Virus record (IMG/VR): IMGVR_UViG_3300010885_080481
Length of the DNA: 64,000 nucleotides
Reading direction: 5' to 3' (one strand)
DNA from: a virus
Taxonomy: Duplodnaviria; Caudoviricetes
In this document: positions 18,400 through 40,115 of the stretch, one piece after another
Numbering within the stretch: position 1 is the stretch's first letter
Layout: the number at the start of each line of letters is the position of its first letter
The notes under the pieces: model-generated
The model's input: the letters and a program-made list of their open reading frames with translations, nothing else
Told to the model about the DNA's origin: nothing
Database searches by the model: none
Program-made: the position numbers and the translations under genes

Positions 18400-18660
18400 C
18401 TATTCTGCCGCCATGGGAAATTCTGCATGTGCAGACATATCTACGGCCCATTTGTCACATGCTTCATGCGCCTTGTTTACCAAATCATTGCAAGCTTCTT
18501 CTAACGTCATACCACTTGTGAGAGCAGCATCTAGGTAGCTCATCATTGCTGCAATCAATTCATCAGAGTTTACTTCGACAGATTCGACCAATTCTTTCTT
18601 GTTGATGCTAAGATATTCCTGTTTTATTAAATTGCGCAGTTGAGATGGTGATAATTTCAT
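18400..18660 (-). CDS. hypothetical protein with capsid-targeting-like N-terminus
   Basis: MKLSPSQLRNLIKQEY leader; ATAATTA immediately upstream. Confidence 0.7.
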   Translation of the reverse strand: MKLSPSQLRNLIKQEYLSINKKELVESVEVNSDELIAAMMSYLDAALTSGMTLEEACNDLVNKAHEACDKWAVDMSAHAEFPMAAE

Positions 18661-18744
18661 AGAGTTAATTATCATGTTCTCAAAGCAACATTTCGTAAAA
18701 TTGTATAAAACGTTATAAAGTAGAGACAATACTTAGCTGTAAGT

Positions 18745-19980
18745 ATGAAAAAAATTTTGCTAGAAAAGTTCATTAAAAATTATTTGCTGTTAGAAGCCAA
18801 GAATTCTGGTTTGTTGAGGCTAATTGATGAACTTTACGTCATGAATGACAAACTCAACTTGAGTGAAGAAGAAAAATTTAAAAAATTGAAAAATGAAATA
18901 TCGATGTATTTGGGGCCGAAAGCTCCTGCAGGATCATCTAGAATAGTTTTTCCTCTTGATTCAGGCAGCGTCATTAAGTTAGCTCTTAATCCTGCAGGAT
19001 TTGCGCAAAATGGTACTGAGGCCATGGCAGGATCCGATGAGTCAGTCTCTGCTATCATAAACCCTGTCATCGCAAAGAGCAACGTCGTAGAATACGACGG
19101 GTTTTTTTGGATCGTTCAAGAGAAGGTATTACCGCTTAATGACGATTTGACTGGTTCTAAAAACTGGTCTTATTTTCAGAACCTTTTGATGAAAGCTACC
19201 AGAGGTGCTCATTCAATCACGCCTGATAAAGGGGAGTTTTCTACAGCTGTTGATGTGGAAAAAACAAGAGTAGAAATTCCGCTCGGCGGGGCAAAAAAAC
19301 TTCAGGCACTGAAACCTGTGAATACGAAGGAAGTAGAAGAGGAAAAAGCTAGAAAGCAGATCTCAGATGCTTTTAAAAAAGTTGGACCTGAATTTTTTGA
19401 ATCTTTCAGGGAATTCTTAAACAAGTACTCAGGATCTAGAACAGGCGATCTTTTTAAACCTGACTCTTGGGGAATGACGTCTGACGGTAGGCTGAAGTTG
19501 ATAGATTATGGATACACCAAAGGAATATCCGACAAGTTCTACGATAGAGGTTACGTGTTGGATCAAACAGAGATAAAAAAGAGGCTCGATGCGGCGCAAC
19601 AACGAAGAGAAGAAAATATAGACTCAACTGTAGCCGATAATGAGTATATGCTTATGAACGTCAACAACGTCCCTCCCTTGATGTCTCTGTTGCTTCTAAT
19701 AAAGGGCGTCGTGATTGGTCTTCCACGCAGAGTTGAAGAGTTTGAGGTCGGAAAAACGCTTTCTAATCTCACAGAAACTGAAAAAACTTCAGTGGCTAGT
19801 TTGATCAGGAATAAGCAAGAAATTATCGAAAAAATTATTAATCAAGTATCAAACACGCAATTAAAAAATAAATTGTATGATGAACTGGATGAAATCCTGT
19901 TGTCAACAGGATCTTTAGGTAAAACTGAATCTTTGATCAGACTTCTAGTAAAAGAAAGCCTCCGCGCAAGAATGAGATAA
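18745..19980 (+). CDS. protein kinase-like fold protein A
   Basis: AGSSRIVF loop, VIKLA Lys, QNGTE, WIVQEKV hinge, GDLFKPDSWG, LIDYG. Confidence 0.7.
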   Translation: MKKILLEKFIKNYLLLEAKNSGLLRLIDELYVMNDKLNLSEEEKFKKLKNEISMYLGPKAPAGSSRIVFPLDSGSVIKLALNPAGFAQNGTEAMAGSDESVSAIINPVIAKSNVVEYDGFFWIVQEKVLPLNDDLTGSKNWSYFQNLLMKATRGAHSITPDKGEFSTAVDVEKTRVEIPLGGAKKLQALKPVNTKEVEEEKARKQISDAFKKVGPEFFESFREFLNKYSGSRTGDLFKPDSWGMTSDGRLKLIDYGYTKGISDKFYDRGYVLDQTEIKKRLDAAQQRREENIDSTVADNEYMLMNVNNVPPLMSLLLLIKGVVIGLPRRVEEFEVGKTLSNLTETEKTSVASLIRNKQEIIEKIINQVSNTQLKNKLYDELDEILLSTGSLGKTESLIRLLVKESLRARMR

Positions 19981-19983
19981 AAA

Positions 19984-20820
19984 TCAACCTTTACCTGACT
20001 GCTTCGGTTCCCATTTTTTCACGTCTCTACGCAACGCTGAAGCTGCATCAAAAAATATCACTTCTCCCTCACCGCCGCGGACGCGTCGAATTCCCATGTT
20101 GTCAGGTTTGAAGTCAACCATCCCTAATTTGTAATGCGATAAAATACCTTTTACGAATCTTTGAAACCAATCAGGAGATAGTCGGTACCTCTCTTCAATT
20201 GACTTCAATTCTGCTTCTGGTAATAAAGGGATCAATTCGTTTGCTAGTTGTTGCGGATTTCTATCAGCAAATTTAACAGGAGGCTGTCCTGTAGACTTGG
20301 CACGTTTTTGTTCTTGCCCGACGATCGTTGCGATACCATCTGAGATGGATCTCCATAACAATTTCCACTCAGGATCCTCACCTAGAGAGCTTGCTTCTGA
20401 CACCTTCTCGACAATAGACCACCCTATCGGTCCTGCGTTGCTTGTAAATACGCCTGTGTCTAATACGTTAGGTAGACCTGAACCAATTTCGCTTCCTGAA
20501 TATAAGACATCTTCAATCTCAGATGCTCGAGGAGTTCCTGGTTCTAGTTTTAGAACTAGATTTCTTCCCAACGAGAACGCTGTACCTTGTCGACCTGATC
20601 CCAAATACTTGACGTTACCTTTAGACAGAATTCTGTTCCAATCTACAAAGTTATCAGGTTCTGCTGAAAAAGCGTCAACGTCTAATCCCATGCGCTTAAA
20701 GACTTTGGATTTCATTAATTCATCTCTTATCATACCCATTTGCAATTCAGATAATTCTTGAGATATGTTTAATGATTCTACTAGAATATTTTTAATGAAT
20801 TCTCTAAGTAATAACGACAT
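19984..20820 (-). CDS. protein kinase-like fold protein B (Ser/Thr type)
   Basis: YLGSGRQG Gly-loop, VLKLE, SIVEKV, VDFKPDNMG catalytic loop, IFFDA. Confidence 0.78.
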   Translation of the reverse strand: MSLLLREFIKNILVESLNISQELSELQMGMIRDELMKSKVFKRMGLDVDAFSAEPDNFVDWNRILSKGNVKYLGSGRQGTAFSLGRNLVLKLEPGTPRASEIEDVLYSGSEIGSGLPNVLDTGVFTSNAGPIGWSIVEKVSEASSLGEDPEWKLLWRSISDGIATIVGQEQKRAKSTGQPPVKFADRNPQQLANELIPLLPEAELKSIEERYRLSPDWFQRFVKGILSHYKLGMVDFKPDNMGIRRVRGGEGEVIFFDAASALRRDVKKWEPKQSGKG

Positions 20821-20862: not shown

Positions 20863-20890
20863 GAAAAAGGCCTCGAAAGAGGCCTTTTTC
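20863..20890. terminator. bidirectional intrinsic terminator
   Basis: GAAAAAGGCCTC-GAAA-GAGGCCTTTTTC. Confidence 0.85.
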
Positions 20891-20913
20891 TAATTAGACA
20901 TGATATCTTTTAA

Positions 20914-21100
20914 TCAGATGATGTTCATGTCAATGACCGTGCCGATCGTGCCTCTTGACCGTAGCCCAGTCTTTGGAAGGGATCGCAGAGTTGACTCTTC
21001 CATCGCCCACTGATGCTGAGATATGCCCTTACGAGATCCGGAGGTGGCCCACGCCACGGGGCCCTTCTTGTACTCCGACTCCACGGACCCGAGGATGCAT
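20914..21100 (-). pseudogene. decayed duplicate of the major capsid gene 3' end
   Basis: Encodes ...GTVIDMNII*; collinear near-exact blocks shared with 23383-23488. Confidence 0.65.
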
Positions 21101-21342
21101 CGTACTGCGGTAGGTGCATCGTGTCGTCTTTGCCTTTTTCGAGGTCCGTGGCCTTTAAGTATCACACGGATCGCAGGAATATTCGCGAATATTGTCCCCA
21201 GGTTTCCCGCATCGCGTATTTCCGACCATTTCTCTGGCGGAACTCTATGCTGCTCCTCGAACAACACGTCTCTTTCCTGCTCATCAATCCGTGGACCACC
21301 ACATCAATGTTGAGGGCAATATATATATGCATGAACGCCGAC

Positions 21343-21471
21343 ATGAAGTTATTGAGGACATACCTAGCCAACGTCATCAGAGAGGTGGCAGAGGTACGGA
21401 CCAAAACCGACGTGGTGGCAAGAGCTTACTTCTTGAATTTCTTACGTGTGTTCGCAAGGTCGATGCCATAA
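21343..21471 (+). CDS. 42-aa protein with capsid-targeting-like N-terminus
   Basis: MKLLRTYLANVIREVAEV; ATATATATA upstream. Confidence 0.45.
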   Translation: MKLLRTYLANVIREVAEVRTKTDVVARAYFLNFLRVFARSMP

Positions 21472-22388
21472 CGTTTGGACAGAGCACCTGACTTGAGACG
21501 AAGAATGTTATGCCAAGACATCAGCTTCTTAGCAAGATCATCCGAAACATAATCTTTTCGACCCAGCTTACCCAACTCTGGGTCACCCGCCATCGTTTTA
21601 ATAAACCTCTTCACCACAGCGTTGACAAACTGTATGGGTGTGACAGGCGCATCTCCTTGGCCTTCGTATGATCCTCGACCGACGACATTCTTCATGGCAT
21701 TGAGGAAGCCATCCTGGACGTTAGCAGGCAGGGCAGCCGGCTCGTTTCCTCCAATCTCATCAGCCATGTCTGGAAAATACTGCGTGATGAGCAACTCATC
21801 AAACTGAGAACCATAACGGTTGAAGAAATCCTTCACCACATCCATCACAGGCTTGGGCTTCTTGTCCAATCTGTTACCGATGGAAACTGTGATATTGGAG
21901 TCGTCTCCTCCCACTCTCTTCGCTTGATCCAGACCCGACTGGACCCAATAGACCATGATCTCATAGAGGTTGTCGTTCATCTCTGGGCGGTCTGGATCAC
22001 GACCCTGAAACTTGAAGCGCTTGTAGGCACCCTTCATCGTGGCCTCGTGAAGCAGGGCATGGATGACGTCACCGCTGAAAGCCTCATCGATATAGTCGTC
22101 GGCGCACAGGGTCAGCAGGCCCGACTGTCCCTTGCTAAGGAATCTTTTTGTGTAGAAACCACCGGTCTCAAAGATTTCATCAAACTTTTGCACTGCAAAA
22201 GCCGTGAATTCAGCATCCATGGCCTTCTCGTCATCTGTCAACGGTGGACGAAGAACACCATAGTGACCGAAAGGTGTGACGTCGTCCATCTTTTTGGTAC
22301 CGGAGGCGAACTCAGGTGTGGACTTGGAGATCTCAGAGACGAGAACCTCGTGAATCAAGGACCGAAGTTGAGAGAGTCGTATCTTCAT
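21426..22388 (-). CDS. hypothetical protein with capsid-targeting-like N-terminus
   Basis: MKIRLSQLRSLIHEVLVSE; ATATTTA upstream; 320 aa. Confidence 0.78.
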   Translation of the reverse strand: MKIRLSQLRSLIHEVLVSEISKSTPEFASGTKKMDDVTPFGHYGVLRPPLTDDEKAMDAEFTAFAVQKFDEIFETGGFYTKRFLSKGQSGLLTLCADDYIDEAFSGDVIHALLHEATMKGAYKRFKFQGRDPDRPEMNDNLYEIMVYWVQSGLDQAKRVGGDDSNITVSIGNRLDKKPKPVMDVVKDFFNRYGSQFDELLITQYFPDMADEIGGNEPAALPANVQDGFLNAMKNVVGRGSYEGQGDAPVTPIQFVNAVVKRFIKTMAGDPELGKLGRKDYVSDDLAKKLMSWHNILRLKSGALSKRYGIDLANTRKKFKK

Positions 22389-22481
22389 GGGAGGTAAATA
22401 TAGGATCGGTCAAAGAAAATATTCAAAGAATGTCGCCTCTGTTCCATACGCGGTATTTACAACCATTTCTCTGGCAGAACT

Positions 22482-23297
22482 CTAGGGCTGCTCCTCGAAC
22501 AACACCTCGAACCGCCAACCCTTCTTCTCACAGAATCGGGCCGCAGCCTCCCACTTGGCCTCATCAATCTCGTCGTGGCGACCCTTCACCTCGTAGAGGG
22601 TACGGTCTTCTGGTGCGTAGAAGTCTGGGACGTAGGTCCGCTGGGAGCCGTCTGGATGGGTATAGGGGATGGTGATGCCATGTGACTTGGTGACATGGTA
22701 ACCTTTGGTAATTGCCGCCTCAAGGAACGACGTTTCCCAGGAAGAATGCATGAACTCCTCCTGTCCGGTGAACGGATTGAACTTCCACTCAGTCTTGAAA
22801 GGAGCATGGGGACCGATGATGCCGGCCTCGAGGAGCTTGACAGCCCGAGCGGAGGCTTCTTTGCGGAGCAGAGAGGCGAAGGGTGAAGAGGACCAGAAGC
22901 GAGCCATTGCTTCTGACTTTTTTCTTTGAACTTCTGGTGTTAGTGTTGCTTGGTTCATTAGTCTACCTTTTTTAAAAGCAACATCTGGGTGTTTACTCAT
23001 CCATCTTTTCATGTTTTCAGAGTTTTTCTTGCCTATCTTCGCTTTCTCCTCATCAGATTTGATTCTACCATGTGCGTGGTGACCGTGGATAAATCGTGTA
23101 AAATCCTTTAGGGAAACATTCCAATTGTTTTTTCCATTGCATCCACATGAGCACAAGGGTATGCAGTTATTGTATTTCCATTTCAGCACATATTCTTGAG
23201 ATGACATCTTGTGGCATCTTAAGTGTCTAAAAACAAATTCCTTTGATTCAAATTCCTGTTCGCACTCTTTACAAAAATTATCTATTTCACTTGACAT
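22482..23297 (-). CDS. free-standing homing-type endonuclease: C2H2/CGC Zn motifs, NUMOD3-like segment, TnsA-like PD-(D/E)XK domain
   Basis: CKEC..H...H, CSCGC, SSWE, YVPDFY, YEVKG, KWEAAARFC. Confidence 0.8.
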   Translation of the reverse strand: MSSEIDNFCKECEQEFESKEFVFRHLRCHKMSSQEYVLKWKYNNCIPLCSCGCNGKNNWNVSLKDFTRFIHGHHAHGRIKSDEEKAKIGKKNSENMKRWMSKHPDVAFKKGRLMNQATLTPEVQRKKSEAMARFWSSSPFASLLRKEASARAVKLLEAGIIGPHAPFKTEWKFNPFTGQEEFMHSSWETSFLEAAITKGYHVTKSHGITIPYTHPDGSQRTYVPDFYAPEDRTLYEVKGRHDEIDEAKWEAAARFCEKKGWRFEVLFEEQP

Positions 23298-23337
23298 ACA
23301 AATATAATATAAACGTAAACTAAAAGTATTTAAACTA

Positions 23338-23362
23338 CAAAGGCCACAAAAAGTGGCCTTTG
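23338..23362 (-). terminator. terminator after major capsid gene
   Basis: CAAAGGCCAC-AAAAA-GTGGCCTTTG. Confidence 0.75.
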
Positions 23363-23398
23363 CAATTATTTAGACAGTGAATTCAGTTGACGTTCATG

Positions 23399-25288
23399 TC
23401 AAATTATATTCATATCCAAAACTGTGACCGTGCCGTAGAAGTCCGAGCGGACCATCTTCTTACCGTAGCGGGTCATCACGCCCTTACGCGGTGTGAAGTC
23501 CTCTGGTGCGAAGATTGTTGGTGTCACGATGAGTGGAACGTATGGTGCGTATACGTAGCCTGTCTCGAGGTAGCTGCCACCCTTGTAGCCAACGAGGATC
23601 TTGTTACGTGGGAAGTAAGGATCCTTGTAGACTGTGAAGCGGTTGCTGACCGTGCCGATTGCCTCTGCACCGATCGTGAATGGTGAGCCAACCTGGCCTT
23701 CTCCATCGATCGAGTACTTGGGCTTGTAGAGAACTGAACTCTCGAGGATGGTTGCAACGTCTGGGCTTGTGACCATGAAGTTTGCAGATCCGCGGAGTGT
23801 CTTGCGGTGGATTGTGTTTGCCACGTCGATGACTGTCTCGACGAGGGTCTCGTACCACTCGCGAACCGTACCCGTGAATTGTGGTCCGATCGAGAGGCTA
23901 GATGCGAGAGTGACTGGCGAGCCTGTTGTCTTGTTGACGAAGCGACCTGGTGCGCGGCTCCAATAGAAGTTGGCGCCGTTGGCCTGTGTGACGAGGTCGT
24001 TGAGGATCTCGCGGTCGATCTCAAGGGCGATCTGCTCTGAGAGGATCGAGGTTAGCTCAACCTCAGCGTCCATGCTGTGGTAGGCGTTGAGGTCCTGTGC
24101 GAGCTCTGGAGACCAGCGGGCACGGAGCTTGCGGGTCGTTGCAGTGATTGCAATTGACTCAATCTTGATGTCGATTTCTGGAATTGCAGGCTGCGGTGTT
24201 GCACCGAAATCAGATTCGAATGATGGAACGGTAAGTGTTGCTCCGCTTGCGCTATCAACTGTGAGACCTGCCTTGAGAGCGAATGAGAAGCGACCGTTTG
24301 AAGCTGCGCTAACCGCGAGGCTTGCACCATCTGCACCCTTGACTGCCATCTGAACGTGTGTACCGTTGAGTGGATCTGGTGTGAATGATACTGCGCCACC
24401 GTTGTACACGAAGTTTCCGCGCTTGTTGAGGCGGCGGAGGTTGAGTACGCCAGAACCACCTTGGAATGCTTCACCCCATGCTGTCGCGTTTGTTACACCA
24501 CCGAAGAGAGCGATGCTATCGACTGCAAGTAGGTCGGCTGCTGCGTTGGCCGTCGTGAAGACCGATGCAGAGACGTAGAGGAAAGAAACGTCGCCGGTGT
24601 TGTTTGTGACGAAGTTTTCAACCTGTGGATCGAAGTCAAGGTAACGAGCGTTGCTACCGCTGAAGTCAGTTGCGGCGGCGAGCTCGTGGCCTGCTAACCA
24701 CGTATCAGCAGCTGAACCTGCCCAGGCGCCGAGAGCGACTGCAGCTGTTGTCATTGCAGCTGATGTTGTCGATCCTGTGACCCTGGAGTAGCTTGTGCCG
24801 ACGAGGTCATACATACCACCTGCTGCTAGAGATCCGCTCTGGACTCCTTTGCCTGTGGGGTTGTTGTAGATAGACTGTCCTCTTGTGAAGACAGCGTCAC
24901 CAGATGTTGGTGTTCCTACGTTCGTGCCGTATGTGTAATCAAGATAGAAGATGAGTCCTGAGGGGAGGCTCATTGGCTGGATCGAAACGAGCTCGTTTGA
25001 AACGAGGCCGCCGAACACTCTACGAACGATTGGGAATGCAATGTTTGTGAATCCCTGGATCTGTCCGCTTGATGTAACGTTACCGCCACCTGTTGAGAGG
25101 CTGTTGCTCTCTTTGAGTACCTGTGCTGCCTGGTTCTCGAGGAGCTGTGCCATTACTTCGCGGCGTGTTCCATCGAGGCCGCGGAGGAGGCCTGTGCGGC
25201 TCCATTTCTCTGTAAGACGGGCGCGCTCAGCGCCGACGTGACGCTCCTTGATGCCCTGTGCAAGCTGATCAATTGTAAAAGATTTCAT
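23399..25288 (-). CDS. major capsid protein (T4 gp23-like)
   Basis: KWSRTGLL.GL, LLENQA, FPIVRRVF..L, VSIQPM.LPSGLIFYLDY, IPEIDI, TRKLRARWSPELAQDL.AYH, EIDREIL, YAPYVPL, PRKGVMTRYG. Confidence 0.97.
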   Translation of the reverse strand: MKSFTIDQLAQGIKERHVGAERARLTEKWSRTGLLRGLDGTRREVMAQLLENQAAQVLKESNSLSTGGGNVTSSGQIQGFTNIAFPIVRRVFGGLVSNELVSIQPMSLPSGLIFYLDYTYGTNVGTPTSGDAVFTRGQSIYNNPTGKGVQSGSLAAGGMYDLVGTSYSRVTGSTTSAAMTTAAVALGAWAGSAADTWLAGHELAAATDFSGSNARYLDFDPQVENFVTNNTGDVSFLYVSASVFTTANAAADLLAVDSIALFGGVTNATAWGEAFQGGSGVLNLRRLNKRGNFVYNGGAVSFTPDPLNGTHVQMAVKGADGASLAVSAASNGRFSFALKAGLTVDSASGATLTVPSFESDFGATPQPAIPEIDIKIESIAITATTRKLRARWSPELAQDLNAYHSMDAEVELTSILSEQIALEIDREILNDLVTQANGANFYWSRAPGRFVNKTTGSPVTLASSLSIGPQFTGTVREWYETLVETVIDVANTIHRKTLRGSANFMVTSPDVATILESSVLYKPKYSIDGEGQVGSPFTIGAEAIGTVSNRFTVYKDPYFPRNKILVGYKGGSYLETGYVYAPYVPLIVTPTIFAPEDFTPRKGVMTRYGKKMVRSDFYGTVTVLDMNII

Positions 25289-39707: not shown

Positions 39708-40115
39708 TTAAATTACGCCTAGTTGCTTTAACTCTATTTCCGTAAGCATCAAGAAAGTCATTCCATGATGATGGCACCACAGTTTTGCTGCCTCCGACTT
39801 CTTCTTAACATTAACAGAATCTAATTTCCTTTTTTGTTTTATTTCCACGACAAACTTAGTACCGTTTTTAAGTTCTACGTAAAAATCAGGGTAGTATTTT
39901 CTGATTTTTCCCGTCGACTTATTTGAAACGTATTCTATGATTACTTTTTCATAAGACCAAGAAGATACGTCAGCATGGACATCCAAAAATATCATATATT
40001 TTTGTTCCCACCCACTTCTAAACTTGCACTCACCTGCAATAGGGGATATGTGAATGCCTCTTTGATAACGTGGTTTTTTCTTTCTTCTTTTTTTCTTTGT
40101 CTTTTTACCAATCAT
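39708..40115 (-). CDS. head completion nuclease (T4 gp4/TnsA-like)
   Basis: FRSGWE, WSYE, YYPDF, VEIK, AAK.WC. Confidence 0.8.
   Translation of the reverse strand: MIGKKTKKKRRKKKPRYQRGIHISPIAGECKFRSGWEQKYMIFLDVHADVSSWSYEKVIIEYVSNKSTGKIRKYYPDFYVELKNGTKFVVEIKQKRKLDSVNVKKKSEAAKLWCHHHGMTFLMLTEIELKQLGVI

Follow-up and report, generated by a model that had tools for sequence, protein, structure and literature searches.

The window analysed here is the whole 64,000-nucleotide stretch of IMG/VR virus record IMGVR_UViG_3300010885_080481, which derives from an uncultured freshwater T4-like phage; the sequencing runs containing the stretch are freshwater and lake metagenomes. It carries a gene for a major capsid protein of the gp23 family (629 aa, positions 23399–25288, PF07068 E 1.8e-77), whose C-terminus reads ...GTVTVLDMNII before the stop. 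In our view the 2.48 kb from 23424 to 20947 are probably a homing-endonuclease island of the type described as mORFs in fungal mitochondria, which entered the last 33 nt of this capsid gene, supplied a recoded gene end and left the recipient's own end stranded downstream. The capsid gene, the island features described below and the gene p278 beyond them all lie on the minus strand. Reading 3' from the capsid gene, the order is a stranded gene end (tail 2), a terminator-like hairpin (T2), a 271-aa open reading frame (ORF) for the endonuclease, the cargo gene p320 (22388 to 21426), the relic of a second endonuclease 3' end, a GC-rich stretch, a further stranded capsid end (tail 3), and a hairpin arm with terminator T3. 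The leader-bearing p278 (278 aa, 19984–20820), homologues of which lie 3' of the capsid gene in relatives, forms the far-side boundary of the variable island.

Relatives of the capsid protein were found at 599 IMG/VR loci, with a top identity of 95%, and the best 80 of these 599 were compared, under labels of the form L0xx. The closest capsid proteins of cultured phages share <50% identity with that of the window, and a blastn search of the whole region against cultured phages returned a single distant capsid match and nothing else.

The capsid 3' end is present three times, as the first-pass annotation had claimed. The working end, tail 1 (23399–23422, the last 7 codons and the stop), is spelt TTG GAT ATG AAT ATA ATT TGA, and its AT-rich codons are indeed atypical: among the other 623 capsid codons AAT serves for 0/29 Asn, ATA for 0/29 Ile and TTG for 1/50 Leu. 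The GC content of third codon positions (GC3) is 0.29 in the last 7 codons vs 0.92 in codons −8 to −20. Tail 2 (23383–23400, 18 nt), also recognized earlier as a GC-codon tail, spells a second gene end, DMNVN and stop (GAC ATG AAC GTC AAC TGA), which begins within the working stop codon, out of register at an offset of +16 nt. Tail 3, 2.47 kb farther downstream, is a stranded 33-nt capsid end (20914–20946) with normal codon usage that encodes ..GTVIDMNII and a stop. When the final 21 nt of the capsid genes of 70 relatives are made into a weight matrix, tails 2 and 3 score 21.6 and 30.2 bits, both beyond the 99.999th percentile (11.3 bits) of a background of 1.37 million positions. Tail 3 is the top score among those positions outside real capsid ends and lies above the median real end (28.3 bits). 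A profile of the capsid 3' end, run with nhmmer over 260 kb of downstream DNA, found tail 3 as the only significant match (E 0.017). The match of 20914–20931 to tail 2 at 16/18, noted previously, is the sole other one in the window within 3 mismatches, where 0.08 are expected. Tails 2 and 3 are thus real copies, far beyond chance.

Chance similarity or a chimeric metagenome assembly might still be suspected since the copies have lengths of only 18 and 33 nt and several relatives co-occur in the source metagenome. This explanation is barely credible, given that tail 3 is the best capsid-end match in the 1.37 million positions and that the junctions recur in independent material. Contigs from two other studies (runs X2 and X3) contain the junction of tail 1, tail 2, T2 and the endonuclease gene with zero or almost zero differences, and the junction of the upstream pseudogene, tail 3 and T3 was likewise recovered from X2 and X3 with zero or almost zero differences. 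The window junctions also recur in JGI and ENA contigs.

The identity of tail 3 is central to our interpretation. Its last 18 nt match the ends of L015, L002 and L003 at 18/18 and tail 1 at 14/18, and bar a 6-nt in-frame gap it is identical (31/31) to the capsid end of L015, which has no endonuclease; the third copy is therefore exactly the end type of endonuclease-free relatives. It also includes the right copy (20934–20944) of an 11-nt direct repeat, CGGCACGGTCA in gene orientation, whose left copy (23425–23435, 11/11) is the final capsid sequence before the recoded end, and a repeat search showed that these two copies flank the 2.48-kb island. The remnant downstream is 33 nt long (20914–20946) and not the ~120 nt suggested by the first-pass annotation, which had extended it through several collinear blocks. 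The block TGACCGTGCCG (20934 and 23425) does fall within tail 3. Those at 20953 and 21025 are not capsid remains, because their region is a DUF5824 pseudogene, the capsid-end profile (nhmmer) finds nothing upstream of 20947, and their local alignment is equalled by 50 to 139 of 500 shuffled controls (10 to 28%).

The gene at 22482–23297 encodes a 271-aa protein with an N-terminal C2H2 zinc finger (matching PRDM9 fingers, E 6e-4), a CxCG cluster, a helical linker and, covering the C-terminal half, a TnsA-like PD-(D/E)xK nuclease (PF08722 E 4e-11). In an alignment of 18 homologues C9, C12, H25, H29, D225 and E236 are invariant, E188 and K238 are nearly so and the CxCG cluster is kept; the nuclease motif, E188 ... 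P-D225 ... E236-x-K238, is thus conserved. An AlphaFold model (pLDDT 83) has Tn7 TnsA (1t0f and 1f1z) as its closest folds, with Holliday-junction resolvases, Vsr and the catalytic domain of I-Bth0305I ranking lower. On the strength of this intact catalytic motif, the gene is a credible free-standing homing endonuclease. Pfam gave no GIY-YIG or HNH catalytic domain in it, which places it outside the T4 Seg/Mob families, and a tblastn search of 50,697 cultured-phage records gave no match. Although TnsA of Tn7 is both the top fold and the Pfam match and shares the E...D...ExK catalytic motif, the window domain differs in being joined to linker helices and a zinc finger, an architecture known from modular homing endonucleases. 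A Tn7-like transposon was considered and rejected: TnsB, TnsC and TnsD partners and transposon ends or terminal repeats were all absent nearby, and its only neighbours among the ORFs are the capsid gene, p320 and pseudogenes. In the literature we found no paper describing a TnsA-like free-standing homing endonuclease in phages. The gene itself is mosaic, with its first 390 nt at 36% GC and the remainder at 57.5%, and its two halves match different relatives; in L019, L033 and L037 endonuclease halves are likewise shuffled, the nuclease half being shared with L010 and the DNA-binding half differing. A longer form of ~475 aa also exists among relatives.

Of the loci compared, 58 are distinct and have enough flank, and an iterative profile search placed this endonuclease family directly 3' of the capsid gene in 32 of these 58, often as two copies or fragments. 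On the capsid-protein tree it must have been gained or lost at least 14 times, and capsid genes that are almost identical differ in whether it is present (L058, L059 and L061; L074 and L075). Its presence is accompanied by recoding of the capsid end. The last Ile codon is other than the optimal ATC at 24/33 endonuclease-adjacent vs 3/29 free loci (Fisher 6e-7), and phylogenetically independent pairs show the same trend at ~6 to 0 (sign test, median p 0.03). GC3 over the last 20 capsid codons is 0.61 next to the endonuclease vs 0.80 in free loci (p 3.6e-5); over codons −21 to −40 it is 0.60 vs 0.67 (p 0.08), and farther upstream the two are equal. The link between the recoded terminus and the endonuclease proposed by the first-pass annotation therefore holds, non-optimal synonymous codons being restricted to the final 20 codons of the capsid gene. 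Such a tract, decaying with distance, is what co-conversion or escape of the target site around a homing site would be expected to leave.

Tail 2 shows a related distribution. A +16 tail is found at 11/32 endonuclease-adjacent vs 1/26 free loci (p 0.007), and copies offset by +16 to +18 occur in L008–L011, L013, L014, L018, L020, L025, L029, L031, L043 and L064. Tail 2 is therefore not a recent private event: 11 of 32 relatives with the endonuclease share the +16 copy, and L002, the closest relative, has it in a decayed state. The sole free locus with the +16 tail, L009, has a recoded end, tail 2, a degenerate third end and the native terminator, an arrangement that looks like a footprint of the element. 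In L012 the native terminator returns after an inserted block of ~1.25 kb, and only 'catctga' of the old end remains. Two genes of the endonuclease family were seen in tandem in the first 2.5 kb after the capsid gene in L013, L033, L036, L037, L047, L062 and L027.

These observations are closely similar to the mORFs of Allomyces macrogynus atp6, Glomus sp. atp6, atp9, cox2 and nad3, Rhizopus atp9 and Mortierella cox2, which combine an inserted C-terminus with a stranded native one (PMC3630166). As in those elements, an essential gene harbours an endonuclease ORF in its 3' part and a foreign C-terminal segment is inserted so that the gene stays whole: the working end, of foreign character, stands directly upstream of the endonuclease ORF. 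The native C-terminus is kept, untranslated, downstream, and is nearer to element-free alleles than the working end is. The sporadic presence at one fixed site, incongruent with the capsid tree, is a feature of homing endonucleases in general. The differences are that the host is a phage and the target its capsid gene, that the replaced segment spans only ~7 to 11 codons, and that the window island is equipped with a terminator and a start of its own and contains additional cargo along with relics of previous events. Fungal mORFs encode LAGLIDADG or GIY-YIG enzymes and the window nuclease is a TnsA-like PD-(D/E)xK protein with a C2H2 finger; the island therefore works like a mORF but outside those enzyme families.

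Other phage systems share some of these features. The free-standing Seg and Mob endonucleases of T4 carry out intronless homing, with marker exclusion and co-conversion (PMC2988022), and homing endonuclease genes are enriched next to capsid, terminase and RNR genes (PMC10448857). Like them, the window endonuclease is a free-standing gene that adjoins an essential conserved gene, is sporadic among relatives, and is linked to flanking differences in a tract that decays with distance as in co-conversion. The parallel drawn initially with T4 segD is sound in that segD lies between genes 23 and 24, though it is an uncharacterised GIY-YIG gene on the opposite strand with no known site (PMC2988022). 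Seg and Mob enzymes are GIY-YIG and HNH proteins, unlike the window nuclease, and segD runs antisense to gene 23; the T4 descriptions consulted do not include stranded copies of gene ends like those of the window. In the cassette formed by MobA and the gene 60 bypass of T4-like phages (bioRxiv 10.1101/2022.08.31.505936; PMC3014915), a phage endonuclease likewise moves together with a short sequence by which its target gene is altered and the product preserved. That cassette interrupts the frame and needs ribosomal bypassing, whereas the window gene simply ends early via a replacement end.

It is likely that the island arose through homing between co-infecting phages. Relatives with native-type capsid ends were found in the same samples as island-bearing forms, therefore mixed infections are plausible. 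In such an infection the zinc-finger/TnsA-like enzyme would cut endonuclease-free capsid alleles in or near the conserved, codon-optimal 3' end, and the break would be repaired from the endonuclease-bearing genome. The left end would recombine inside the capsid gene, copying in the donor's differently spelled end and stop and leaving the capsid protein intact, and the recoded end would be expected to resist further cleavage. The right end would be joined via a short homology, here the 11-nt repeat CGGCACGGTCA, so that the recipient's last 33 nt, end-pairing hairpin and terminator would be stranded downstream as tail 3. Tail 2 may be a similar scar of greater age, carried along with the left flank of the island, and the 3' end of the endonuclease gene may bear an equivalent scar, serving as the recombination site for gain or loss of cargo such as p320. 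The tail 2 event would then be the oldest, the tail 3 junction, known only from the window's strain cluster, younger, and the gain or loss of p320 the youngest.

Several observations weigh against this interpretation. ATC is retained as the last codon at 9/33 endonuclease-adjacent loci. L002 has tail 2 and T2, yet a codon-optimal end and no endonuclease; therefore tail 2 either predates the island or spreads separately. The recoding could reflect hitch-hiking AT-rich flanks and not selection for resistance. The phage is uncultured and we only infer the cutting of its capsid end. The sites that separate L002 from the tail-2 group are too sparse within the window's capsid gene to place a crossover. 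The first-pass annotation had proposed a comparison of relatives with and without the insert, and the interval from the capsid gene to p278 does vary, from 0.8 kb in L002 through 2.6 kb in the window to ~7 kb in the L070/L085 contig. A near-identical genome with an empty site, in which the capsid gene is joined directly to tail 3 and T3, was not found: an exact-pattern scan for the tail 3/T3 junction in IMG/VR and the metagenome collection gave no match and no empty-site relative. Contigs of run X2 that join 20931 to 23424 or 23433 were examined as candidate empty sites and rejected; they belong to other relatives, whose native ends share 18 nt only and then continue into different DNA.

Each capsid end in the window is also associated with a predicted secondary structure. 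The terminator-like GGCC hairpin T2 (23338–23362) is preceded by an arm, AUUCACUGUCUAAA, that pairs with tail 1, and the predicted fold has −36 kcal/mol and z −8.3. T2 is homologous to the post-capsid hairpins of L002, L008, L010, L013, L014 and L029. Tail 3 is followed by a complete 3' module of the capsid type (20863–20903, z −5.7), in which the arm TCATGTC (20897–20903) is complementary to GACATGA of tail 3 and precedes terminator T3 (20863–20890); the T3 region resembles post-capsid sequences of L019, L021 and others at >99th percentile of random windows. A TTAGACA motif and a GGCC hairpin terminator had been noted after both copies, and they are present at T2 and T3 alike, where TTAGACA is the 3' hairpin arm that pairs with the capsid gene end itself. 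The capsid stop and last codons are predicted to lie in a hairpin with a downstream arm before the terminator at 20897–20931 and 23368–23420 of the window, and a hairpin-enclosed capsid end is likewise predicted in L038, L044, L048, L050, L060 and L078.

It could be argued from these folds, which pair the gene end with a downstream arm strongly at both T2 and T3, that the extra copies are kept as a working RNA or DNA structure in which the end of the capsid mRNA is sequestered for stability or termination. Tail 2 would be part of this structure; in both the window and L010 it pairs with the region of the stop codon over a 5-bp stem, in which one change is compensatory, and an inverted copy of the gene end stands immediately 3' of the stop in many endonuclease-free alleles. 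We consider this improbable. A hairpin requires an inverted copy and the tail copies are direct; the nearest working capsid end is 2.5 kb away from tail 3, which stands beside a pseudogene and has a 6-nt deletion; and pairing at the stop codon exceeds that with shuffled downstream sequence only marginally (6.9 vs 5.7 nt, p 0.06).

Downstream of the endonuclease gene the island records exchanges of a different kind. The cargo gene p320 (320 aa, 21426–22388), for which a family search of Pfam, PHROG and Atlas gave no match, begins with a leader, MKIRLSQLRSLIHEVL, common to neighbouring genes and is flanked by 56-nt repeats. Repeat R1 (22453–22508) consists of the endonuclease 3' end and 29 nt more and is ~92% identical to R2 (21216–21270), which from the repeat comparison is, together with decayed remains upstream (21216–21300), what is left of the 3' end of a second endonuclease gene. 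The endonuclease stop codon is overlapped by 20 out-of-frame codons (LEFCQRNGCKYRVWNRGDIL and a stop, 22423–22485), which form the stranded C-terminus of another endonuclease lineage and align with the in-frame C-terminus of the L020 endonuclease. In the near-identical L084 (a 1105-nt JGI contig, 99% identical) and in a contig of run X4, p320 alone is missing and the endonuclease 3' end runs straight into the R2 side; L084 has one repeat, which resembles R1 on its left and R2 on its right. A 71% homologue of p320 is the third gene of a same-leader array in L087; this array comes after an endonuclease gene of 489 aa and 148 nt of relic sequence from a window-type endonuclease end. Judging from these junctions, p320 was gained or lost through recombination at the 3' end of the endonuclease gene itself and not at the capsid end. 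The earlier proposal that mobile cargo enters the capsid 3' end is thus supported for the endonuclease family, which is sporadic at exactly that site, and not for p320, which is exchanged at the endonuclease 3' end.

Such exchanges raise the question of whether ordinary mosaic recombination might account for the whole island without targeted cleavage. The interval from the capsid gene to p278 would then be a general hot spot of cassette exchange with the endonuclease as a passenger; co-infecting relatives would swap cassettes via short homologies (leaders, terminators and gene ends), and the stranded ends would be by-products of unequal or illegitimate crossover. The exchange of p320 via the 56-nt repeats fits this account, as do the position of the p320 homologue of L087 within an array of genes sharing leader and upstream sequence and the occupation of the same site in L002 by an unrelated gene, a 223-aa HAD/5'-nucleotidase-like gene (L002:7977–8648) in the position of the endonuclease island. 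The divergence of L002 from the window is also uneven, at 91% identity for the capsid gene vs 56% for p278; the window's right side is therefore from another lineage. Left unexplained are the AT-shifted synonymous sites, which are limited to the last 20 codons and track the endonuclease in independent pairs, and the place of the endonuclease family at the first post-capsid position in 32/58 loci. We therefore regard mosaic recombination by itself as unlikely.

Within the preferred interpretation of a mORF-type island, a more extended role for the right-hand side can be suggested, tentatively and with some doubt. The stranded native end, hairpin and terminator might act as a right-hand homology arm, allowing the 2.5-kb island to home as a unit, with a capsid-targeting endonuclease spreading a cargo of injected proteins horizontally between freshwater T4-like phages that infect together. 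In that case the island would comprise an undescribed zinc-finger/TnsA-like homing endonuclease and genes for leader-tagged proteins that are probably packaged in the virion. The island is also a natural exchange site for genes with a leader resembling capsid-targeting ones.

If the homing interpretation is correct, a 'bring your own gene end' mode of invasion also operates on the capsid gene of T4-like phages, which is their most conserved and most expressed gene. To our knowledge, most documented cases of invasion that replaces a gene end come so far from fungal mitochondria. New here are the type of nuclease, the capsid gene as target and the signal at population level; homing would be carried out by a TnsA-like nuclease, a type not so far counted among homing endonucleases. 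Because recoding in endonuclease-bearing genomes is confined to the final 20 codons of the capsid gene, it yields a specific prediction, open to testing, of the site of the cut. It also bears on practice: gp23 3' ends serve as phylogenetic and PCR markers, and this marker tract would be under pressure from a selfish element.

The pseudogene next to tail 3 (20951–21134) retains DUF5824 residues 124–153 and 155–170 in two frames, has ~90 residues deleted and has lost its C-terminus, which is severed 4 nt before tail 3. It matches the 178-aa DUF5824 protein P0002 at 87% over 30 aa and 81% over 16 aa in different frames, and L081 at 78.5% over 135 nt. An intact 117-aa ORF (20914–21267) spans the relic endonuclease end, this pseudogene and the stranded capsid end; it is predicted by gene callers as P0001 in JGI and ENA records, and this chimera is most likely not a real gene.

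The shared leader MK[IL]R[LI]SQLR..I.E starts the window genes at 21426–22388, 19984–20820, 18745–19980 and 18400–18729, occurs at L087:1757–4364 and L020:10970–11894, and is also borne by P0002. The leader and the sequence upstream of it recur ahead of every gene in the L087 array and may serve as recombination homology. A second nuclease of the endonuclease type is encoded elsewhere in the window, on the minus strand at 39708–40115: this AT-rich gene specifies a 135-aa stand-alone TnsA-like domain without the zinc-finger part (E 5e-19 against the endonuclease profile) and sits between an 829-aa structural gene and a 196-aa RuvC-like ORF.

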